Source: an uncultured Methanosarcinales archaeon
GTDB lineage: Archaea > Nanobdellota > Nanobdellia > Woesearchaeales > ARS49
Reading direction: 5' to 3'
DNA length: 44,988 bases
Assembly (NCBI GenBank): GCA_964640255.1
Contig: CAZXEZ010000001.1
Location: 1-44,988 of the forward strand
Shown: one piece after another, positions 9,231-32,273 of the stretch
Numbering within the stretch: the stretch's first letter is position 1
Layout: every line of letters begins with the position of its first letter
Made by a program: the position numbers and the translations under genes
Notes under the pieces: model-generated
Told to the model about the DNA's origin: nothing
Database searches by the model: none
Seen by the model: the letters and a program-made list of their open reading frames with translations, nothing else

Positions 9231-9294
9231 GGCGGCAGTGGCGTAATGGCAGCGTACAGGACTGTGGCTCCTGTGGAGCGGGTTCGATTCCCAC
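9231..9294 (+). pseudogene. tRNA-His(GUG)-like gene lacking the 3' acceptor strand
   Basis: Has G-1, acceptor 5' strand GCGGCAG, D arm, a perfect anticodon stem CAGGA/TCCTG with loop CTGTGGC, and a TTCGATT T-loop. One mismatch in the T stem. No complement to the acceptor strand follows. Confidence 0.6.
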
Positions 9295-9413
9295 CTAACT
9301 TTGGAAAAGTTAGGATCAAAGGCGCTCCTTGTTCGAACTCAAGAAGCAACCTATATGATGTTTGCTCACGCAAACATGTATTTTACTCTTCTTTCGTTCT
9401 CACAATGTCACGC
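9295..9413 (+). repeat. 119-nt structured repeat, copy A
   Basis: Starts with hairpin CTAACTTT-GGA-AAAGTTAG and ends CACAATGTCACGC. Aligns along its full length with copies B and C. Confidence 0.8.
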
Positions 9414-9422
9414 AGTGACTAT

Positions 9423-9494
9423 GGCGGTAATGGTGTATTGGCAGCATATAAGACTGTGGATCTTATGGTGCGGGTTCGATTCCCGCTTGCCGCC
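9423..9494 (+). tRNA. tRNA-His (anticodon GUG) with encoded G-1
   Basis: Cloverleaf folded by hand. G-1 pairs with C73. Acceptor GCGGTAA/TTGCCGC, D stem GTGT/GCAT, anticodon stem TAAGA/TCTTA with loop CTGTGGA, T arm GCGGG-TTCGATT-CCCGC. No encoded CCA. Confidence 0.9.
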
Positions 9495-9613
9495 CTAACT
9501 TTAGAAAAGTTAGGATCAAAAGGCGCTCTTTGTTCAGGCTCCAGAAGCAATCCATCAGATGTTTTCTTCGAAAACATGGACTCAACTCTTCTCTCGCCTT
9601 CACAATGTCGCGC
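9495..9613 (+). repeat. 119-nt structured repeat, copy B
   Basis: Begins immediately after the tRNA-His discriminator base. Same architecture as copies A and C. Confidence 0.8.
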
Positions 9614-9626
9614 AAACGGTTCCGCC

Positions 9627-9658
9627 CTAACTTTAGAAAATGGAGAATCAAAGGGCGG
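9627..9658 (+). repeat. partial, degenerate 5' part of the 119-nt repeat
   Basis: CTAACTTTAGAAAATGGAGAATCAAAGGGCGG compared with CTAACTTTAGAAAAGTTAGGATCAAAAGGCGC. Preceded by GGTTCCGCC, which resembles a tRNA 3' remnant. Confidence 0.5.
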
Positions 9659-9673
9659 TATTTCTCAAAAAGA

Positions 9674-20257: not shown

Positions 20258-20409
20258 GCAAAACTTCAATTTATTCCCTGAAAATCCTTCGGAAAATTCC
20301 AGGCAAGGCATATAAAGAGTAAACCTGCTAAGTTCTTATGATTAAACCAAAACCTTTATATAACGTTTTGTTATATTTTATTATAACATGTTATATGAGG
20401 TGGATGATA

Positions 20410-20637
20410 ATGGTACAAGCAATAATAACCTTAGGAGAGCATGAAGATAGAGTGCTCACCATCATTAAAGGTAAATTCGGGCTAAAAAACAAGTCAGATG
20501 CGGTGAATTTTGTAATTGAAAGATTTGAGGAAGAGCTGCTTGAGCCGCAATTAAGGCCAGAATACAAGAAAGAATTAACTAAAATCATCAAAGGAAAACA
20601 TCTCTCTAAAAAAGAATTTGAAAAAGAGGTAGGTTAA
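20410..20637 (+). CDS. DUF2683-like antitoxin candidate
   Basis: MVQAIITLGEHEDRVLTIIKGKFGLKNKSDAVNFVIERFEEELLEP matches the DUF2683 pattern. Start moved from 20338. Directly precedes the RelE-like gene. Confidence 0.6.
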   Translation: MVQAIITLGEHEDRVLTIIKGKFGLKNKSDAVNFVIERFEEELLEPQLRPEYKKELTKIIKGKHLSKKEFEKEVG

Positions 20638-20639
20638 AA

Positions 20640-20906
20640 TTGTATGAATCTCGGTATAGTATAAAATTAGCTAAAAAATTAAAAAAACTGAAGAAAAAGA
20701 ATTTAAAACATTATTTGTTTGTTAGACAAAAAATGAATGAAATCTTAGAAAACCCACATCATAAACATAAAGAATTACGCTATTCAATGAAAAATGTCAA
20801 CAGAATTCATCTCGGACATTTTGTTTTAATTTTTATAATAGAGCATACCAAGAAAACAATTTCTTTTGAAGACTACGATCATCACGACAAAATATATAAA
20901 AATTAG
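20640..20906 (+). CDS. RelE/ParE-superfamily toxin candidate
   Basis: 88 aa with TTG start, 2 nt after the upstream stop. Basic N-terminus and C-terminal RIHLGHFVLIFIIEH...DYDHHDKIY resemble the RelE fold pattern. Confidence 0.5.
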   Translation: MYESRYSIKLAKKLKKLKKKNLKHYLFVRQKMNEILENPHHKHKELRYSMKNVNRIHLGHFVLIFIIEHTKKTISFEDYDHHDKIYKN

Positions 20907-22382: not shown

Positions 22383-22823
22383 GTGAAATTAGGGGAGTGG
22401 TATAGAGAAAAGTGTGAGAGCATGGTAATCTTATTTGATCGGTTTAATTTATCGTCGGACATCTTTGAAATAATCTTTTCTACTGAGCAGCAGAAGATAG
22501 TCGCAAAAGAACTGATCAAATTTACCATCGAGAATACTGGAGAGATTACCAAGACACAGATGAGTTTTTTTGCAACGCAATTACATGATGGCAAGTACGA
22601 ATGTGTCTTAGATTCCGGAGTGCACAAGGGCAAGAAGGCAAAACTGAGCTACAACAAAAGACAATTCTACGACAGGATATTAACGCCGATGAAATCAATG
22701 GGCTTGATTGATTATGATCTTTACAAGAAAACGTACAAGATTTCTGATAAATTCTCAAATGACATGATGAAGATAGGCCTGATGTGGAAAGCTGAGTTAA
22801 GGAAGTTTGGTGTTAAGATATAA
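22383..22823 (+). CDS. hypothetical protein, probable winged-helix C-terminus
   Basis: 146 aa with GTG start. Its last 100 nt are duplicated at 23572..23671. Confidence 0.55.
   Translation: MKLGEWYREKCESMVILFDRFNLSSDIFEIIFSTEQQKIVAKELIKFTIENTGEITKTQMSFFATQLHDGKYECVLDSGVHKGKKAKLSYNKRQFYDRILTPMKSMGLIDYDLYKKTYKISDKFSNDMMKIGLMWKAELRKFGVKI
22720..22819 (+). repeat. 100-nt direct repeat, copy 1 (3' end of the 146-aa gene)
   Basis: 98/100 identical to 23572..23671. Both mismatches are synonymous third positions. Confidence 0.9.
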
Positions 22824-23153
22824 ATGACCAGCCCGCACGATAAACTGCTATACCAAGTTTCAGGGGCCATTTCCCGCATTTTTGATTTGTCATTTCTTAA
22901 AACAGCAGGATATGGGTCGAATCCTAGAAATATAGAGGATACTCTTGAGATAGACATGCTTGGCCAAAAAGGCAACATACTTTATGTATTCGAGGTAAAA
23001 ACAAACGAGAATGATACCTCTGAAGCGATAACACAGTTAAAAAACAGGCATTTAGGACTGAATTTGAACAAGGATAATATAGTCAATAAACAGAAGCAGC
23101 TGCCGCATTATGACTACATAAAATTGTTCATAGTGACTCCAAAGAATGTGTAG
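22824..23153 (+). CDS. small PD-(D/E)XK-like nuclease-fold protein
   Basis: EIDMLGQKGNILYVFEVKT fits D...(D/E)xK. The ATG directly follows the upstream TAA. Confidence 0.45.
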   Translation: MTSPHDKLLYQVSGAISRIFDLSFLKTAGYGSNPRNIEDTLEIDMLGQKGNILYVFEVKTNENDTSEAITQLKNRHLGLNLNKDNIVNKQKQLPHYDYIKLFIVTPKNV

Positions 23154-23263
23154 GAGATAAATGAAAAAGGCAGCCTTTTAAACAGGTGGCAGCTAGATAA
23201 AGTCATGAAAACCCCAGAAATAATCCAATAAGTTTAAATAGTTTAAAGACAGTAAAGAATAAC

Positions 23264-23569
23264 ATGAAATATCAAATCACAACCAAAAATAGAAAAGATT
23301 TTTTGGCATTACAGAACATATTAGATGATACCCTAAAAAATGGTGTTGTTGAAAGAACGATTCGTGGTGGTTTAATAACTCAGAACCAGGATAGTGCAAA
23401 AGTCACATATACTGGCCCAAACGTGTCTGCATATTTTGAGTTTGATAAGGTAAACGGCACATATGCTGGTGCTCTGGTTGTTGAGAAGGCACCAGAAGAG
23501 GCAGCAAATAAATTAGCTGCTAGAATAAAGAAAGAATTGCCTGCCCTAAAACCAGAAACTAAATCTTAG
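23264..23569 (+). CDS. hypothetical protein
   Basis: 101-aa ORF with a TTTAAATA box about 30 nt upstream. Confidence 0.5.
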   Translation: MKYQITTKNRKDFLALQNILDDTLKNGVVERTIRGGLITQNQDSAKVTYTGPNVSAYFEFDKVNGTYAGALVVEKAPEEAANKLAARIKKELPALKPETKS

Positions 23570-23571
23570 TT

Positions 23572-23671
23572 TTTACAAGAAAACATACAAGATTTCTGAT
23601 AAATTCTCAAATGACATGATGAAGATAGGCCTGATGTGGAAAGCTGAGTTAAGGAAGTTTGGGGTTAAGAT
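23572..23671 (+). repeat. 100-nt direct repeat, copy 2 (orphan gene 3' end)
   Basis: Encodes ...YKKTYKISDKFSNDMMKIGLMWKAELRKFGVKI followed by a stop, but has no 5' gene body. Confidence 0.9.
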
Positions 23672-23719
23672 TTAATATATTTCAAAAGGTTTAAATAGTT
23701 TCTTCACTAAGGATATTTT

Positions 23720-24506: not shown

Positions 24507-24584
24507 TTATTTAGTCAAAACTTCTACCTTATCTGTAATCAACAGAGTATGTTCTGCCTGAGAGACCATTCCTTTGTTTTTCTC
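24507..24584 (-). repeat. orphan copy 'a' of the map gene 3' end (78 nt)
   Basis: Aligns with 28425..28499 of the live map gene, from the stop codon inward. Confidence 0.85.
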
Positions 24585-24664
24585 TGGTTAAACAAAAATT
24601 AACCACTATTAAGTGATTAAAAAACCAAAGATTTAAATACTCACGAATATTAACATGTAGCACC

Positions 24665-25435
24665 ATGAGCAAAGATGAATCAGTGGAATTTCAAACAAAG
24701 GAATTTCAAGAGGGTGAATTTAGACAAGTAATTGAAAGGTCTAAAGAATTGATAGCCAGAGGGTATTTTACCGGAATAAATTTTCTGCAATCAGAGGAGC
24801 CCCTGCCGACAAATTCAATAATCGTCCACTTTCTTCACGACAGCGAACAACATTTGGATGAAATCATATCCGCCGTGCCTGCTGCGCGTTTGGTAGTCCC
24901 TAGATTCACGTGCTACATGCTAAATCCTAAATATTTTCAAAAGCCCAATTTTGCTGAAGAATACCGAGATGTAGTTTTTTTCGATTCTAACTTTAATATA
25001 ATCACAGTTGAGGAGGCGATTGCAAAACCTTTGGGCGTGACAGTACTTAACCGAGAGTTGGATTTAATAGTCCCGCTTCACGGCAGTAAAGATTTATACG
25101 ATACTGTGCAAGCTTTGCAAGAGGCAGACAAAGAAGGCCCTTATCAGTGGATAGATCCGGTTCTTATTGTGAAAACAAAAACGCCTGTTACTGCTCTAGA
25201 AGGTTTTGTTGACAAACAGTATATTAGTATTGCAAAAGAAAGAGAAGAGTTTTATTCAATCTTAACCGACGAGGAAAGAACTGATGCCCTATCGAATTAT
25301 TTAGATAAATTGTGTGCAGCCACAAAAATAGGAACATTACAAAGAAGTGACGTTGTTTTCAATGCAAGCCAAGTAAACAAAAAGTTTGCAGATTTCTTAG
25401 TTAATATTCAGAACCAGCTTCGAATTCTTGAATAG
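24665..25435 (+). CDS. hypothetical protein
   Basis: 256-aa ORF with a TTTAAATA box about 25 nt upstream. No family recognised. Confidence 0.55.
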   Translation: MSKDESVEFQTKEFQEGEFRQVIERSKELIARGYFTGINFLQSEEPLPTNSIIVHFLHDSEQHLDEIISAVPAARLVVPRFTCYMLNPKYFQKPNFAEEYRDVVFFDSNFNIITVEEAIAKPLGVTVLNRELDLIVPLHGSKDLYDTVQALQEADKEGPYQWIDPVLIVKTKTPVTALEGFVDKQYISIAKEREEFYSILTDEERTDALSNYLDKLCAATKIGTLQRSDVVFNASQVNKKFADFLVNIQNQLRILE

Positions 25436-25718
25436 TTTCTCGCAATCTTTGTTTAGAATAAACACCTGTAAGTTTTTGAGAGCCTCCACCACGCACACCT
25501 TTTTCAAACGCCTCTTGTAATAGATTAACAACACCATTTTTATGTATGCGGCACTTATATTCTATTTCTCCCCAACCATATCGCCATTCACTAATACATC
25601 CGTCATCAGGTAATTCTGCAAGAACTTCAATTAATTTTGGTAGATTCTCCTGACTAATACAATCTAAACCTTCTATTTCTGGGTCTTCTGATGCTTTTCG
25701 CAATGTTTCTACTAACAT
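25401..25718 (-). CDS. hypothetical protein
   Basis: 105-aa ORF, convergent with and overlapping the 256-aa gene by 35 nt. Confidence 0.45.
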   Translation of the reverse strand: MLVETLRKASEDPEIEGLDCISQENLPKLIEVLAELPDDGCISEWRYGWGEIEYKCRIHKNGVVNLLQEAFEKGVRGGGSQKLTGVYSKQRLRETIQEFEAGSEY

Positions 25719-25790
25719 TTTCCTATGAATTATATGTCTCTAGAAGTATATAAATCTTTTGAAATAAATCTAGTAATATACGTAAAATAA

Positions 25791-26000
25791 CTAAATCTTA
25801 ATCAAAACTTCTACTTTATCTGTAATCAACAGAGTATGTTCTGCCTGTGAGACTATCCCTTTGTTTTTCTCGACTAAAGGAGGGAATTGCTTGATAATAT
25901 TGTTTTTCAGGAGTTCTCTCAATGCAAAATTAGTCTTGCCCAGGCCGAACTTTTTTGAGAGCCATCTTGTTGTGAATGGTAATGTCTTGTAGTTTTCGCC
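25791..26000 (-). pseudogene. orphan copy 'b' of the map gene 3' end (210 nt, 69 codons plus stop)
   Basis: Encodes GENYKTLPFTTRWLSKKFGLGKTNFALRELLKNNIIKQFPPLVEKNKGIVSQAEHTLLITDKVEVLIKI, colinear with the Map C-terminus. There is no gene body upstream. Confidence 0.9.
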
Positions 26001-27388
26001 TATGTCTGCGTTTCCCCAAAGCTTCAAAATCAGCTGAAATCCAATTCTTCTTCACTTAGCTGTTTTTGAACACTTCAAAACTGTTTCGTCATTTTCGAGT
26101 TTTAGAGCTTGTAGCCCTGAAATTCGAGCATTTCAGAGTTTTTACTCTCTAGTAAGTTTATGACGCTTTTTAGAAAATCCATCATAACTACTCCTTAATG
26201 ACGAAACCTTTATAAAGGATTACTGCCTTTAGCAAATCATTACCTTTAGAGGGGCGGAAAAATGACTGAAAACAAAAAAGAATCAGAAAATGAAGTAAGG
26301 CGCAGAGTATATCTTAAAAAGGCAATACAAGACTTTACTGAAGCAATTAGATTAAACCCAAAATATGATCAATATTATGTGAATCGCGGGATTGTTTATT
26401 CTAATCCACATGTTCGCGAGGTTATACAATATCTTAATCAGAATGGTCTAAGAGCAGAATTAAAAGACTCTGCACTTCAGGGAGATGATGTTGACATTCT
26501 TGCAACAGGAAGCCTTGAGGACATAACAGAAGTGACCTGTGCATTAAATGGAGCCAAGGATATTGCAGATCCATTCTACAGCACAGCTAGAGACAGTGAA
26601 GATTACACTGTTGTGCATGAAGGTGAAAATGTTGCTTACATGCGCGAGAATCTTGCACAGCTGTTCAAGATACTTGTCGGCGACACAAAAATTCATGTCG
26701 GATTGAAAACAAAGCCAAGTATTGATTAATTTTTTTTATTTCATATGCCTTGAAAAAGAGACCCTAAAATGCCGATGACAAAAACATTATGCGGAGTTCT
26801 GCACGATGAGGCAGACAAAGAGGAGATACAGCAAGTTCTAGATCTGATAGATAATACAAATCCCGCGAAAGTAGGATTAGAGATTACCAATAAATATGCA
26901 GAAACCAATCACTGCCCTGAATTTTTTGATAGGATACATGATTATGCAAGGACAAATGGAAGAAGGATAGTTCCTTTAGAGCACCAGCTTGCTCATGAAA
27001 AATACAGCATAGTAAACGCAGTTGTGCTGGTGCTTGAAGACAAGTTATCAAGGGAAAACCTTGAATTTTTGCTGCAGTACACTACAATTGAATTAAAAAA
27101 GAGATTCGCCTTAAAATCTTCACAAATACGCGCACTTGAAGAGAATCAAAAAACAACCAAACATGCACTCAAGCTGCTTGATAGTAATCCAACAAAAGAG
27201 GAAGCTATCAAATGGTATGAAGAAGCAGAAACTGAAAGAGAAAAACACATGTTAAACAGGATTCTGCGGCATAATCCAGATCTTGTTATTATTGGGGTCA
27301 AGCATGCAGAAGCAATAAAAGACAACCTGCAGGAGTATCAGTATATTTGCCTTGCAAAAAGAGATGCAGAAGGTATTTTTGAATCATA
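26001..27388. mobile_element. putative inserted cassette II (two genes)
   Basis: Bounded by map 3'-end fragments b and c. Confidence 0.45.
26262..26729 (+). CDS. hypothetical protein with one TPR-like repeat
   Basis: AIQDFTEAIRLNPKYDQYYVNRGIVY. TTTATAAA box upstream. Confidence 0.5.
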   Translation: MTENKKESENEVRRRVYLKKAIQDFTEAIRLNPKYDQYYVNRGIVYSNPHVREVIQYLNQNGLRAELKDSALQGDDVDILATGSLEDITEVTCALNGAKDIADPFYSTARDSEDYTVVHEGENVAYMRENLAQLFKILVGDTKIHVGLKTKPSID

Positions 27389-27389
27389 A
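26769..27389 (+). CDS. hypothetical protein
   Basis: 206-aa ORF. The stop abuts map fragment c. Confidence 0.5.
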   Translation: MPMTKTLCGVLHDEADKEEIQQVLDLIDNTNPAKVGLEITNKYAETNHCPEFFDRIHDYARTNGRRIVPLEHQLAHEKYSIVNAVVLVLEDKLSRENLEFLLQYTTIELKKRFALKSSQIRALEENQKTTKHALKLLDSNPTKEEAIKWYEEAETEREKHMLNRILRHNPDLVIIGVKHAEAIKDNLQEYQYICLAKRDAEGIFES

Positions 27390-27439
27390 TTTAGTTATTA
27401 CTTCCACCTTATCTGTAATCAACAGAGTATGTTCTGCCT
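27389..27439 (-). repeat. orphan copy 'c' of the map gene 3' end (about 51 nt)
   Basis: CTTCCACCTTATCTGTAATCAACAGAGTATGTTCTGCCT aligns with the live gene end. Contains a 5-nt diverged patch. Confidence 0.75.
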
Positions 27440-27862
27440 TTACTCCTCGACTAATGACGTTAAGAACTGGATAATCTTTGTTATTTCTTCCTTGTTTTTC
27501 TCATAAAAAGAGATATCAACTGCTTCACCGTAATAATGTAACAGGTTTCTTAAATAACTCATTTCTGAAATAAAATTAGCTTCAAACTCATTATCTGAAT
27601 GCTTTCGGTAAAAATAAGAGATAAGACATTGATGATTCTTTGATTTCAAGCCATGTTTTAGCAATAATGCCACAAGCAATTCCTTGATAATCTCATAATA
27701 ACCCTCAATGATAAAAGAAACATTATCTTGATTAACTTGCTGGATGTCAACAAATTTTCTTCTTTTAATGACTGTATCCAATATGGAACTGATCTTTTCC
27801 TTGTCAGGAGTCACAGTTCTGATAAATTGCCGCCTGCATTCGCCCCAATCCATCAAATTCAT
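27440..27862 (-). CDS. HEPN-domain protein (toxin candidate)
   Basis: 140-aa helical protein. YLRNLLHYYG resembles an R-x(n)-H HEPN motif. 4-nt overlap with the upstream nucleotidyltransferase gene. Confidence 0.55.
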   Translation of the reverse strand: MNLMDWGECRRQFIRTVTPDKEKISSILDTVIKRRKFVDIQQVNQDNVSFIIEGYYEIIKELLVALLLKHGLKSKNHQCLISYFYRKHSDNEFEANFISEMSYLRNLLHYYGEAVDISFYEKNKEEITKIIQFLTSLVEE

Positions 27863-28365
27863 CTTATTTTAAAAAACCCCGTAATCCTGATTCCGTTAAC
27901 CACATTATTAAATAAGTTGTCTGGCAAATTATTGATACTCTGTTCAGTAAAAAGCTGGATTTTGTGGCCCAATATCTTCTCAAATTTGGCCAAGTCCAAA
28001 TCCTGTTTCTTTAAGGCTTCAACAAACAAGTCAACATCACTTTCTTTAGCTGATTCGCCTTTCCTGAAACTGCCAAAAAGAATTATGCAGGACGGTCTTA
28101 ATTTCTCTGTTAAATACTCTATCAAACCGCTTTCAAATAACTCCTTAATATAAAAAAAGGTCTTTTCCGTTTTAAACAAAGCAGTACTGACTGCCTCGTT
28201 TTCTTTATTTACTCTTCTGCTTTTTTTAAGCTCTCTTAAATATTTATGAACAGTTGATTTTGGAATCCTTGTCTTTTTGGCTAGTTCCCGAACTGTAAAC
28301 TGCTTCTCAGGATACTCGTAAAAAATCCTTAGAATTTTGTCCAAATTATTGTACTTTAGTCCCAT
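27859..28365 (-). CDS. wHTH plus minimal nucleotidyltransferase (MNT, antitoxin candidate)
   Basis: LFGSFRKGESAKESDVDLFV fits GS...G....SD.DL. N-terminal FTVRELAKKTRIPKSTVHKYLRELK is an HTH. Confidence 0.7.
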   Translation of the reverse strand: MGLKYNNLDKILRIFYEYPEKQFTVRELAKKTRIPKSTVHKYLRELKKSRRVNKENEAVSTALFKTEKTFFYIKELFESGLIEYLTEKLRPSCIILFGSFRKGESAKESDVDLFVEALKKQDLDLAKFEKILGHKIQLFTEQSINNLPDNLFNNVVNGIRITGFFKIR

Positions 28366-28421
28366 TTTATGTCCTTAAGTCCCAATAAATGGATTAACTA
28401 TTTAAATGTTGTGCTTTTTCC

Positions 28422-29330
28422 TTAAGATTTAGTCAAAACTTCTACCTTATCTGTAATCAATAAAGTGTGCTCTGCCTGAGAGACTATCCCTTTGTTTTTC
28501 TCGACTAAAGGAGGGAATTGCTTGATAATGTTGTTTTTCAGGAGTTCTCTCAATGCAAAATTAGTCTTGCCTAAGCCGAATTTAGAGGATAACCATCTTG
28601 TTGTGAAAGGCAAGGTCTTGTAGTTCTCGCCGACAAACTTAAGTATTTCCCTGGCAAAAGGGCTTCTGACAGGCTTTGGGTTTGTGAGCATGAAGATGTT
28701 AGCTCTCTCTGACTCGTATATCATTCCTGCACCATCAGTTGCAAAAGGCTCGATAGCAATGCACATATTCTCCTCTATTTCAGTGTCATCGCCAGTGTCA
28801 AAATTAGGGATTGTTGGATCTGTGTGGATATCGTAATAATCCAATCCATGGCCGCTTAAATTCTTTATAGGCGAGAAACCATGACTAGAGATAGTCTCTT
28901 GGATGGTCTTTCCAATCTCTCCTAAAGTTGTTCCAATCTGAACAATCTTGATTGCATTATTCAGGGCCTCTCTAGAGGCTTTTACCAAATCAGAATATTT
29001 TCCGCTCAGATCAACTGTAAGAGCATTGTCTCCTATTGCTCCTTCAAAACAGGCACCAACATCCAGGCAGGCAACCTGATCCTCAAACACAATCTTATCG
29101 TCTGGATCTGCACAATAATGCGCAGCAATATGGTCGCAGGAAATCTGTGCAGGAAAAGCAGGTATTGCACCCAAGTCTACAATCTTTTTCTCTATCAAAT
29201 CAGAGACCTCTAGCAGAGTTGCGCCTTTCTTTATTAATCCTCCACCGTATTCAAGGGCCTGCGCTGCAATCTTCCCGGCTTTTTTCCATTTCTCTATGTC
29301 TTCTGGAGTTAACTCTGTTTCTTCTTCCAT
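28422..29330 (-). CDS. map: type 2 (archaeal) methionine aminopeptidase
   Basis: Pita-bread fold motifs (AHYCADPDD, LDVGA, HGL, IAIEPFAT) and the C-terminal winged-helix insert typical of MetAP2-type enzymes. Confidence 0.9.
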   Translation of the reverse strand: MEEETELTPEDIEKWKKAGKIAAQALEYGGGLIKKGATLLEVSDLIEKKIVDLGAIPAFPAQISCDHIAAHYCADPDDKIVFEDQVACLDVGACFEGAIGDNALTVDLSGKYSDLVKASREALNNAIKIVQIGTTLGEIGKTIQETISSHGFSPIKNLSGHGLDYYDIHTDPTIPNFDTGDDTEIEENMCIAIEPFATDGAGMIYESERANIFMLTNPKPVRSPFAREILKFVGENYKTLPFTTRWLSSKFGLGKTNFALRELLKNNIIKQFPPLVEKNKGIVSQAEHTLLITDKVEVLTKS

Positions 29331-30487: not shown

Positions 30488-31639
30488 ATGAACATATCCA
30501 ACATTCTAATGATAGGCTTCTTAATAGCACTCAGCCTGACTATATTGATCTTTAGAAAGAGATTTGTTTTCCAGAGCTTTGGGAAAATATTTTATTTCGG
30601 AATGTACAAGACAAAAGTAGGGCTGAAGCTGATGGACAGATGGTCTAAAAAATACCCAAGAATATTGACGAGGCTGTGCTATCTGTCAATAGTGATTGGA
30701 TTCTTGGGAATGATACTGGTAGTATTTGACCTGATAAAATCAGGATACCAGATATTGACTGGAACAAGCACATTATCAGTCGGACTGGTATTGCCTGTTC
30801 AGGCAAAAGGAGTGTTTTATGTCCCATTTATTTATTGGATAATCGCAATAGCAGTCATCGTTGTCATACACGAGTTTTCACATGGATTGATAGCAAGACT
30901 GCATAAAATAAAAGTAAGGAGCTCTGGAGTTGCATTCTTAGGAATCATTATACCATTAATACCTGCAGCATTTGTAGAGCCAGATGAAAAACAATTAAGA
31001 AAAGCATCCAGGTTCAAGCAATTAAGTGTCTATGCAGCAGGACCATTTGCAAACATTGTCTTTGGATTTCTATTCTTAGGAATATTTGCACTGATACTAA
31101 ACCCATTTGCAGCCTCTTTATACAATTTTGAGGGCGTAAAAGTAAATGATTTTATGGGTGCTGAAAGTCCTGCAGAGATAAGCGGCATGGCAACAGGAGA
31201 GATAATAACAGAGATAAATGATGCTGAGATAAAGAATACAGAGGATTTTCTTAAATCAATAGAAGATGCAGAGCCAGGAGATGTTGCAGAGATAAAGACC
31301 ACAGAAAAAAGTTATTCTGTTTTATTAGAGGAAGATCCAGCTGAGAAAGATGCATTCTTAGGAGTTTGGGTATCAACAGAGAAGACAATGAAAGACAAAA
31401 GTTTATTCTCTTATTTCATAATCTGGGTGACTGACTTGTTCTACTGGTTATTTTTATTGAACTTAGGAGTGGGGTTGTTTAACCTGGTTCCAATCGGGCC
31501 TATTGACGGTGGAAGAATGCTCCAGACAGTGCTTGAAAAAGTGATGCCTAATAAACGTGCAACAAGAGTGTGGCACACTGTGAGTGTTGTTGTGTTGATG
31601 ATTATCGTCAGTAATATTATTTATGCTTTTGTCGCTTAA
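30488..31639 (+). CDS. site-2 protease (M50 family) with PDZ-like insert
   Basis: HEFSHGLIA (HExxH) and NLVPIGPIDGGRM (NxxPxxxxDG). Multiple TM helices. Confidence 0.9.
   Translation: MNISNILMIGFLIALSLTILIFRKRFVFQSFGKIFYFGMYKTKVGLKLMDRWSKKYPRILTRLCYLSIVIGFLGMILVVFDLIKSGYQILTGTSTLSVGLVLPVQAKGVFYVPFIYWIIAIAVIVVIHEFSHGLIARLHKIKVRSSGVAFLGIIIPLIPAAFVEPDEKQLRKASRFKQLSVYAAGPFANIVFGFLFLGIFALILNPFAASLYNFEGVKVNDFMGAESPAEISGMATGEIITEINDAEIKNTEDFLKSIEDAEPGDVAEIKTTEKSYSVLLEEDPAEKDAFLGVWVSTEKTMKDKSLFSYFIIWVTDLFYWLFLLNLGVGLFNLVPIGPIDGGRMLQTVLEKVMPNKRATRVWHTVSVVVLMIIVSNIIYAFVA
31609..31637 (+). repeat. 29-nt direct repeat, copy 1 (last codons of the S2P gene)
   Basis: CAGTAATATTATTTATGCTTTTGTCGCTT, identical to 31764..31792. 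Confidence 0.9.
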
Positions 31640-31758
31640 GCGCGATATTGTGAAGGCGAGAGAAGAGTTGAACCCCTGTTTGCGAAGCAAACAGCTGACA
31701 GAATGCTTCTCGAGCCTGAACAAAGAGCGCCCTTTGATCCTAACTTTTTCAAAGTTAG
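31640..31758 (-). repeat. 119-nt structured repeat, copy C
   Basis: The reverse complement aligns end to end with copies A and B. It forms the core of the 126-nt insert 31638..31763. Confidence 0.8.
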
Positions 31759-31763
31759 ATTGA

Positions 31764-31792
31764 CAGTAATATTATTTATGCTTTTGTCGCTT
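31764..31792 (+). repeat. 29-nt direct repeat, copy 2
   Basis: Identical to the S2P gene end. Here it is followed by GA, giving the presumed ancestral TGA stop. Confidence 0.9.
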
Positions 31793-31865
31793 GAGTTCTC
31801 TTTCATAACATTTATATACAAGATGTTTCTATTCCCTAGTAACTTACTAGAGAAAGGTGATTTAA

Positions 31866-32273
31866 ACGAAACTGTCAACAAAATCAGAATATGCCTGCCT
31901 TGCACTGGTCGACCTGTCAAAGCAGTACAACAAAGGCCTTGTCAAGATAGAAAGCATAGCCACCAGGCAGCACATACCGAAAAAATACCTTGAACAGATC
32001 CTGCTTCTGCTGAAAACATCTGGCTATCTGAAAAGCAAAAGGGGTTCAGAAGGAGGGTACAAACTCTCAAAGCCCCCAAACAAGATATCTGTTGCAGAGA
32101 TAGTCAGGCTAATGGACGGGGCTCTAGCTCCTGTCGAGTCAGTGAGCAAGTATTTTTACGAGCCGACTCCGATATCAAAGAACAAACAGCTGATAAAGAT
32201 GTTTAAGGAAATAAGGGATTATGTCTCCAAAAAACTGGAGAATACAACATTTGCAGATCTCATAAAGAAATAA
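31866..32273 (+). CDS. Rrf2-family transcriptional regulator with ACG at the expected start position (not in ORF track)
   Basis: 136-codon frame read by hand: (T)KLSTKSEYACLALVDLSKQYNKG...KSKRGSEGGYKLSKPPNKISVAEIVRLMDGALAP. TAA lies immediately upstream and a GGTGA SD sequence lies 5 nt before the ACG. Confidence 0.7.
   Translation, partial: TKLSTKSEYACLALVDLSKQYNKGLVKIESIATRQHIPKKYLEQILLLLKTSGYLKSKRGSEGGYKLSKPPNKISVAEIVRLMDGALAPVESVSKYFYEPTPISKNKQLIKMFKEIRDYVSKKLENTTFADLIKK

Follow-up and report, generated by a model that had tools for sequence, protein, structure and literature searches.

Duplication of a gene end around a small structured element at the site-2 protease locus of a DPANN archaeon

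Integrative elements that enter the ends of tRNA genes and of other genes restore the gene that they enter, and they accrete at the same site. Insertion with long target duplication, discovered by genome comparison around bacterial restriction-modification genes, proceeds by a mechanism that is not known (PMC2853133). The published cases concern bacteria only, and no archaeal case survived the screen made for them (Nobusato et al. 2000; Furuta, Abe & Kobayashi 2010, PMC2853133). Integrons have been described in archaea, with DPANN archaea reported as carriers (PMC9668308). The subject of the present analysis is a 119-nt structured element, here called E, which lies directly after the gene for a site-2 protease (S2P, peptidase M50) in a 44,988-nt stretch of archaeal DNA (contig CAZXEZ010000001.1; the whole stretch is referred to as the window), and around which the end of the protease gene has been duplicated. 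The named homologues of the protease are site-2 proteases of Candidatus Woesearchaeota, and the names of the histidyl-tRNA synthetase (HisRS) homologues likewise point to this DPANN lineage. Loci from related genomes and metagenomes are identified below by the letter L and a number.

The S2P gene was recognized from its open reading frame (ORF; 30488-31639, plus strand, 383 aa), a PF02163 match and named homologues. Ahead of two junction bases, its last 29 nt, CAGTAATATTATTTATGCTTTTGTCGCTT, make up the proximal copy of a direct repeat and represent the functional gene end (DR1, 31609-31637). The only other site with this 29-mer is the exact distal copy (DR2, 31764-31792); no third copy exists in the window even when three mismatches are allowed, none of 100 dinucleotide shuffles produced a match, and zero are expected by chance. 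If a single mismatch (TAA vs TGA) is tolerated, the direct repeat extends to 32 nt. The copies are separated by 126 nt (31638-31763), which begin with the two junction bases AA (31638-31639), continue with the 119-nt core of E (31640-31758) and end with the filler ATTGA (31759-31763) that separates E from DR2. All of these features are on the plus strand, E being in the same sense as S2P, and the core is 88% identical to the reverse complement of 9495-9613, a segment directly after tRNA-His. The junction bases turn GCT T into GCT TAA and thereby complete the stop codon of the protease. The distal repeat is followed by GA and reads GCT TGA, leaving a relic TGA stop at 31792-31794 with native DNA beyond it. 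The first-pass annotation had described a perfect 29-nt duplication around a 126-nt copy of a 119-nt repeat, and the exact sites and the reverse-complement match bear this out. The same filled allele was recovered from three further independent assemblies (JGI 3300028837, Logan SRR3095939 and JGI 3300008517), and since four independent assemblies thus carry an identical allele, it is not an assembly artefact. Given also that the exact repeat is unique, chance and misassembly are both ruled out, and the insertion at the S2P end is genuine.

Relatives of the organism carry the predicted empty site, ...GCTTGAGTTCTC..., which the first-pass annotation had proposed to look for. The empty allele of L003 (S2P 92% identical at the amino acid level) reads ...gcatttgttgctTGAgttctctttcacaacatttatata, that is, ...GCATTTGTTGCT TGA GTTCTCTTTCACAACATTTATATA, and that of L006 (87%) reads ...cttttgtagcaTGAattctgtttcacaacatttatata, that is, ...GTAGCA TGA ATTCTGTTTCACAACATTTATATA. 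Both have a single copy of the S2P gene end, joined straight to the promoter region of the downstream gene for an Rrf2-family regulator. The corresponding empty allele predicted for the window consists of the S2P end followed by TGAGTTCTC, and the DNA downstream of DR2, GTTCTCTTTCA...TTTATATA, matches the empty-site relatives. All S2P alleles that bear E have TAA followed by G(C/T)GCGAT, and both the empty alleles and the distal repeat read TGA at the stop codon; the earlier proposal that the insert exchanged the stop codon and left the protein unchanged is thereby upheld. On the S2P tree, the lineages with E are the window, L009/L010, L015 and L025, and those that have none are L003, L004 and L006. 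The distribution is patchy, L009 being filled and its sister L006 (94% amino acid identity) empty, and a covariance model detected no diverged extra copies of E in L003-L008, near the empty S2P sites. The S2P insertion is polymorphic among close relatives.

Copies of E were gathered through a scan of species-representative genomes, a metagenome scan and inspection of the neighbourhoods of S2P and HisRS homologues. This yielded 21 distinct copies, all on Woesearchaeota contigs of one genus-level clade, in at least eight contexts that include S2P, ATP-dependent DNA ligase, ZPR1, an intron-containing tRNA and both sides of tRNA-His. Every copy begins with (T)GCGCGAYAT... and ends with ...AAAGTTAG, and every copy has the same architecture of a 91-nt rod hairpin, a 9-nt linker and an invariant 8-bp hairpin, CTAACTTT-nnn-AAAGTTAG. 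In the S2P copy (141.9 bits with covariance model R1) the rod, defined by fold and covariation, spans 31640-31730, and the small hairpin, which forms the exact 3' end of the element, spans 31740-31758. The rod consists of four helices with three tandem G.A/A.G internal loops between them, together with an internal loop and an apical stem that are both variable; it folds with −44.4 kcal/mol (z = −6.9). A diverged partial copy was also seen at L013 2458-2621, in a metagenome-assembled genome labelled Methanosarcinales; its clear likeness to E is confined to the 3' 72 nt (46 bits with the covariance model), and it could be a mis-binned contig, a distant family member or a transfer.

The alignment of the copies argues that a folded single strand of E, either RNA or single-stranded DNA, is the target of selection. 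Standard pairs account for 98.2% of the paired cells and nine pairs show double compensatory changes, neither of which was reached in any of 500 shuffles, and slid pairing registers drop to 34-48% paired. The conservation is strand-specific: at paired positions the S2P-sense strand (the GA strand) has 35 G:T cells vs 3 A:C cells, and its six loop GA dinucleotides are invariant in 20-21 of the 21 copies. In the apical loop and stem, which are hypervariable, changes are compensated. If transcribed on the GA strand, E would span (U)GCGCGA to ...AAAGUUAG.

Attempts to place E in a described family gave no match. No Rfam family was found for E, either at gathering thresholds or at E-values up to 10, and only two tRNAs pass. 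A CRISPR-like repeat was rejected, CRISPR-DR57 matching the small hairpin below threshold (17.9 bits vs 39, E = 0.2) and no array being present. By inspection, an H/ACA RNA was discarded on account of an ACA that lies inside a covarying helix and is ACG in several copies, a K-turn RNA on account of symmetric G.A loops that have no 3-nt bulge, and the template/variable repeat pair of a diversity-generating retroelement on account of mismatches that are not adenine-specific and of housekeeping targets. A guide loop of the kind found in bridge RNA or omega RNA was likewise dismissed, the longest match of the apical region to its own flanks averaging 6.6 nt, compared with 6.63 nt for the flanks of others. 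Ten candidate loci contained chance pattern matches only and no E (L012, L014, L019, L020, L024 and L029-L033). The element was not found in IMG/VR (two pattern scans, chance matches only), among the INPHARED phages or among the PLSDB plasmids. E is a discrete, low-copy family of structured elements of DPANN archaea, and it is new.

The sequences that flank E follow the gene and not the element. On the GA strand, the order is gene, repeat copy 1, filler, E, repeat copy 2 and native downstream DNA, with a filler of 0-13 nt between copy 1 and E (38 nt in L022). The repeat is 29/32 nt long at S2P in the window and 43-57 nt at S2P in L009, L015 and L025; it is 47 nt at the ATP-dependent DNA ligase of L016, 21 nt at ZPR1 of L011, 36 nt at the intron-containing tRNA of L022 and 62-84 nt at tRNA-His in the window and L026. 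The ligase locus of L023 holds two E elements and three copies of the gene end, the first two of which share ~69 nt, while the third matches over only ~26 nt. Over the whole family, repeat lengths run from 19 to ~84 nt, and they are not constant even at a single gene. Copy 2 adjoins ...AAAGTTAG in nearly all cases, the window with its five extra nucleotides being the exception, and the junction shows 4-5 nt of microhomology to GTTAG in L009, L022 and L023. For protein genes, copy 1 ends 0-5 nt past the stop codon, and the tRNA repeats reach the end of the tRNA. The repeats are wholly different between S2P, ligase, ZPR1 and the tRNAs, and each matches the local gene; the 29-mer is therefore derived from the target and is not a part of E. 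The first-pass annotation had named the opposite outcome, a 29-mer belonging to the repeat family, together with a lack of empty sites in relatives, as what would overturn its interpretation, and every other copy of E turned out to have a repeat of its own target gene. The upstream gene stays intact, and the displaced copy of its end remains on the native downstream DNA.

One location recurs throughout the clade. E adjoins tRNA-His in every HisRS-linked clade locus examined (HisRS 88-95% identity), and the 3' flank of tRNA-His is the resident locus of the element. In what we call the B arrangement, found in the window, L035, L036, L040, L018, L010 and L026, the small hairpin begins right behind the discriminator base of tRNA-His, at the point where cleavage by RNase Z would fall; L037 has no B copy and represents an empty site for it. 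In the A arrangement, found in the window, L026 and L037-L039, a truncated tRNA-His (positions 1 to ~62) is followed by E, a few bases and a complete tRNA-His. The window contains both. Its functional tRNA-His (GTG anticodon, encoded G-1; ARAGORN, Rfam 62.8 bits) is located at 9423-9494 on the plus strand and is followed by the resident copy B at 9495-9613 on the minus strand (R1, 142.9 bits). Copy A lies at 9295-9413 on the minus strand (R1, 129.1 bits), between the complete tRNA gene and a pseudo-tRNA-His at 9232-9294 on the plus strand (Rfam 39.6 bits), which holds positions 1 to ~62 and has no 3' acceptor strand. For copy A, the direct repeat (83%) is formed by this pseudo-tRNA and the functional tRNA. 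The pseudo-tRNA is identical to the functional tRNA-His of L035 at 60 of 62 bases, and the functional tRNA-His and copy B of the window resemble L036. Beyond copy B, the stretch 9614-9663 (plus strand), composed of the filler AACGGTT, CCGCCC and a degenerate small-hairpin region, forms a 19-nt exact repeat with the 3' end of tRNA-His plus the beginning of copy B. Two side observations concern this locus. The 'tRNA-Ser' (gga) that ARAGORN predicts at 9266-9352 is an artefact in which the truncated tRNA-His is fused to the small hairpin of E. The truncated tRNA-His retains the native upstream region and the functional tRNA-His, a different allele, lies downstream of E; the latter may rely on read-through for its transcription.

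The same kind of duplication surrounds unrelated cargo elsewhere in the window. The last 104 nt of an ORF at 22383-22823 (146 aa), including its TAA stop (22720-22823), are repeated at 23572-23675 with 97% identity, 852 nt downstream. The 748-nt insert (22824-23571) opens, immediately behind the stop, with the ATG of a 109-aa ORF and ends 2 nt past the stop of a 101-aa ORF; in L005 and L009 the arrangement is empty. Four copies of the methionine aminopeptidase (MetAP) 3' end (gene at 28422-29330, minus strand), 50-203 nt long (70-92% identity), lie within 24509-28631, separated by three cassettes of 1.0-1.6 kb that encode a HEPN and nucleotidyltransferase pair, a TPR protein and ORFs to which no function was assigned, with no integrase among them. 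Gene-end duplications around such unrelated cargo suggest that the process does not depend on the cargo. Pfam scans of the ~30 ORFs of the window revealed no integrase, transposase, reverse transcriptase, Cas1 or HUH domain, a scan of the 102-aa ORF that follows the insert in L009 revealed no mobility domain, and no integrase or recombinase was found in the window or in the fetched loci. In its layout the MetAP locus resembles an array built by tandem accretion at the end of a gene. Toxin-antitoxin-like pairs are also present in the variable region between FtsZ and MetAP, within 20338-20906 (a ParE/RelE-family toxin and an upstream small ORF) and 27440-28365 (HEPN and nucleotidyltransferase), consistent with a hotspot for acquired cassettes. 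A palindrome, TTAACCACT-nnnn-AGTGrTTAA, occurs beside repeat boundaries in the window (24599-24620, where ~0.04 are expected in the whole window) and in L027 (252-273), and could be another small structured repeat.

Once in place, copies of E take part in rearrangement and exchange. The S2P genes of L009 and L006 are 97-100% identical over nt ~600-1080 and then 77% over the last ~60 nt, and a 102-aa ORF located 3' of the distal repeat is common to L009, L015 and L025. The tree of E copies is incongruent with location, the S2P copy of L009 being 95% identical to the tRNA-His copies of the window and of L036. As judged from these alignments, filled alleles pass between lineages by recombination. 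L010, which comes from another sample of the same series and encodes the same S2P protein as L009, has its S2P-linked E joined to the reverse complement of tRNA-His and upstream genes. Comparison of L010 1838-2030 with L009 11153-11330 and L040 2245-2434 reveals a ~22-kb polymorphic inversion between the inverted copies of E at tRNA-His and S2P; the E of L010 is a recombinant of these two copies, with the crossover within the first 27 nt of the element. Arrays in L009, L027 and L022 end in 5' stubs of E of 10-27 nt. The S2P copy of the window is 88% and 78% identical to the tRNA-His copies of its own genome, and its nearest sampled copy is 89.9% identical. A recent intragenomic copy from the tRNA-His locus was rejected as its origin on the ground that it is at least 10% diverged from every sampled copy; its repeats are nonetheless perfect, and either the donor was an unsampled conspecific or the repeats evolve in concert.

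Among described systems, insertion with long target duplication is the closest in form. In both, a segment has been inserted together with a long and variable duplication of a unique target, from tens to hundreds of base pairs, no transposase or integrase is present in or beside the insert, and the event is recognized by comparing filled and empty alleles; in both, the repeats often overlap the 3' ends of genes and allow amplification into arrays. At S2P, the repeat aligns to a single-copy target in the empty alleles of L003 and L006, and the same is true of the ORF at 22383-22823 with respect to L005 and L009. The bacterial definition calls for a variable repeat longer than those usual for transposons or att sites (more than 30 bp in the screen), and the repeats of the family (19 to ~84 nt) are of this kind; the 29/32 nt at S2P in the window are borderline, and the repeats around the other cargo in the window reach 50-203 nt. 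The 126-nt insert is non-coding and contains no mobility gene. The bacterial cargo, however, consists of kilobase-sized restriction-modification genes, whereas E is a 119-nt structured unit with exact ends and a resident locus, and the repeats of E end at the stop codon whereas the bacterial repeats straddle it. Gene-end duplication by E extends this unexplained bacterial phenomenon to archaea.

Other systems resemble E in part. Integrative elements of tRNA genes and gene ends, including cis-mobilizable elements (CIMEs), share with it the terminal gene repeats, the restored gene, tandem accretion and inner junctions near the T-arm, but E has no integrase or shared att core, is found at many unrelated targets with a repeat of variable length and measures only 119 nt. 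REP/BIME, Correia/NEMIS, ERIC and archaeal MITEs (miniature inverted-repeat transposable elements) are likewise short, non-coding, hairpin-forming, multi-copy, situated after genes and prone to rearrangement. These families possess REP heads or terminal inverted repeats, their duplications are short and fixed if there are any, and their copy number is usually high. E, by contrast, is asymmetric at its ends, occurs in few copies, has gene-end duplications that are long and variable, and shows conserved G.A motifs that are strand-specific. Short interspersed nuclear elements (SINEs) and processed retrocopies of eukaryotes are also tRNA-linked discrete units with variable duplications, one precise junction and one with filler, mobilized in trans; E differs from them in having no A-tail, no identified internal promoter and no reverse-transcriptase partner, and in its longer duplications. 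The attC sites of integrons, finally, are imperfect hairpins with strand-specific features that lie directly after a stop codon, and the small hairpin of E (CCTAAC...GTTAGG) resembles the RYYYAAC/GTTRRRY cores. Unlike attC, whose hairpins measure 57-141 nt, the 91-nt hairpin of E has GCGC/GCGC at its base and not AAC/GTT, and the AAC/GTT-like hairpin is only 19-21 nt long. The junction of E is outside GTTAG and not within G|TT, the element is flanked by long repeats of target genes, and neither an E-bounded cassette array nor IntI is present.

We favour, at a probability of roughly 0.55, a composite reading in which the lineage possesses a cargo-independent route of recombination or repair that E enters as a single-stranded copy. 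The insertion with long target duplication would be carried out by the lineage's own recombination or repair and not by a staggered cut of the transposase type. A fixed staggered cut is hard to reconcile with repeats of 19-84 nt that vary at one gene, with ends that are not inverted repeats and with the gene-terminus rule. E would probably enter as a single-stranded copy of its GA strand, either a processed RNA or its cDNA or single-stranded DNA. Its invariant 3' end (...AAAGTTAG) would be joined by microhomology at a variable point within the last codons of the target, and its 5' end would be attached at the stop codon, in some cases across a few bases of filler. Several points weigh against this reading. 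The position of the end of copy 1, 0-5 nt past the stop codon for all protein genes, is not predicted by random staggered nicks or by ordinary repair, and it is the expectation for an att-like gene end borne by the element. The middle copy of the ligase end in L023 is only ~55-70% identical to its neighbours and looks foreign, and the functional tRNA-His allele of the window differs from the pseudo-copy, which matches L035; such foreign-looking copies are better explained by a carried gene end or by subsequent allele exchange than by a simple local duplication. The S2P copy of E is at least 10% diverged from the sampled copies though its repeats are identical at 29 of 29 positions, and the event was therefore not a recent copy from the organism's own tRNA-His locus. 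The rules of E insertion are drawn from about 8 to 10 independent events, which is few.

The stop-codon rule is best explained if E is a miniature integrative element, such as a CIME or an att-flanked remnant, that brings the target gene end along as an attP-like segment. Integration in trans would then be the work of short-homology Campbell-type recombination or of a tyrosine or serine recombinase whose gene lies elsewhere, the 29-mer would be the att or homology segment and not a product of the insertion, and arrays would arise by accretion. The repeats do run from inside the gene to its terminus and restore it, and gene restoration is, as Williams is said to have set out in 2002, the classical logic of integrases that target tRNA genes and gene ends. 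Three tRNA-associated events with the inner junction in or beside the T-arm, the alternating A-E-A-E-A arrays (L023, L027 and the tRNA-His locus), the MetAP cassette array, the foreign-looking repeat copies of L023 and tRNA-His, and the recombination hot spot at the 5' end of E (the L010 crossover and the 10-27-nt stubs of L009, L027 and L022) all agree with it. Yet every target would need its own element-borne gene end, and at least six unrelated targets share no common core. The length of the repeat varies at one gene (29 vs 42-52 nt at S2P, 26/47/69 nt at the ligase), no recombinase was detected in the 45-kb window or near any inspected copy, E is missing from the viral and plasmid collections searched, and a double-stranded circle of ~155 bp would be implausibly small. 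The foreign tract of L009, moreover, begins ~15 nt upstream of the repeat and its DR2 is not host-like, which fits two-sided allele replacement and not a crossover at att. We regard this explanation as unlikely, though worth keeping in view. Retroposition would account for the exactness of both ends of E, the 3' end coinciding with the tRNA-His processing site at the resident locus. E would then be an archaeal SINE-like retroposon, an RNA with processed ends that is reverse-transcribed at a target nick with variable target duplication, and that RNA would come either from the GA strand, with a cut at the start of antisense tRNA-His, or from the 3' trailer that RNase Z releases from tRNA-His. 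Of the two junctions one is precise, with microhomology, and the other has filler, the repeat length is variable, E has no terminal inverted repeats, no transposase was found in the window, and the fold is conserved in a strand-specific manner with G:U pairs and tandem G.A motifs. DPANN archaea reportedly carry reverse transcriptases of diversity-generating retroelements, but none was found in the window or the inspected loci. E also has no A-rich tail, the invariant ...AAAGTTAG standing directly against the repeat, and no 5'-truncated copies; repeats of up to 84-104 nt exceed typical target-primed duplications, the promoter-bearing MetAP cassettes show the same duplications and speak for a process at the DNA level, and the stop-codon rule is left unexplained. 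We know of no SINE-like retroposon in prokaryotes, and we consider this origin quite doubtful.

Two simpler accounts fare worse. In the first, E would be a classical MITE that owes its mobility to staggered transposase cuts, and the 29-mer a plain target-site duplication. The element is indeed small, non-coding, hairpin-forming, multi-copy and flanked by repeats of target sequence, and some insertion sequence families give long variable duplications, such as those of 19-26 bp made by IS1630 (cited in PMC2853133). Its ends, (T)GCGCGAYATTGTGA at the 5' side and CTAACTTTnnnAAAGTTAG at the 3' side, are nevertheless not inverted repeats of each other, duplications of 19-84 nt that end at gene termini are far too variable for a fixed stagger, the copy number is low (~3 per genome fragment sampled) and no transposase was found in the window, all of which make this account highly improbable. 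The alternative that E is not mobile at all, and is a conserved cis-acting 3' untranslated region (UTR) or terminator module with repeats that arose by tandem duplication or slippage at the hairpin, draws on the purifying selection on the fold, the sense orientation of E directly after stop codons and the T-run in the loop of the small hairpin. It is largely refuted by the empty sites in close relatives, and it also conflicts with the occurrence of one and the same 119-nt unit, its ends unchanged, at unrelated genes and, beside tRNA-His, in either orientation, and with the incongruence between the E tree and location; we give it hardly any credence. A bolder reading is that these Woesearchaeota insert sequence immediately behind stop codons and at tRNA ends by a general route that duplicates the gene terminus and needs no transposase, and that E is a processed, structured RNA of the tRNA-His locus copied in that way. 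We view this as a long shot; if true, E would have no described predecessor among prokaryotes, whether as a SINE-like retroposon or as an RNA-templated insertion.

The gene downstream of the S2P insertion is the Rrf2-family regulator (31866-32273, plus strand; PF02082, E = 2e-34, match from residue 3), which is located outside the element. Its frame contains no ATG, GTG or TTG at the start, and the ACG at 31866-31868 lies directly after a TAA and 7-8 nt 3' of GGTGAT. The ACG is kept in L003, L006, L009 and L015, and its conservation in four relatives suggests a genuine non-canonical start codon. The first-pass annotation had linked the insert to the aberrant start of this gene, a link that is unsupported: the ACG is also conserved in relatives that have no insert, and the Rrf2 start is therefore an old feature, unrelated to the insertion. 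The TTTATATA box of the gene (31811-31818, plus strand), a putative archaeal TATA box judging from its sequence, is conserved in the empty-site relatives and untouched by the insertion, and the distal repeat preserves both the native promoter context of Rrf2 and the spacing to the box. The insertion is probably near neutral for S2P and Rrf2. Downstream of the distal S2P repeat, L009 (11350-11658), L015 (from 4566) and L025 (from 6238) have a conserved ORF (102-107 aa) that has no match in Pfam. Neither the window nor the empty-site relatives have this ORF, which may be cargo of the same or of an earlier insertion.

The genomes of DPANN archaea are tiny, compact and highly mosaic, and how they gain cassettes is poorly understood. 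Four loci within a 45-kb window, S2P, tRNA-His, MetAP and the ORF at 22383-22823, have gained sequence right after a gene, with the end of that gene duplicated. With the smallest cargo, exact ends, a resident copy and empty sites in relatives, E provides a trackable marker of the insertion route, and its copies serve as portable homology, as observed in the 22-kb inversion and in allele exchange. Insertions of E also yield pseudo-tRNA fragments that mislead tRNA annotation, and they place a selected structured sequence into 3' UTRs. Taken together, these loci point to a recurrent, uncharacterized insertion route that spares housekeeping genes and by which DPANN archaea could gain genes.

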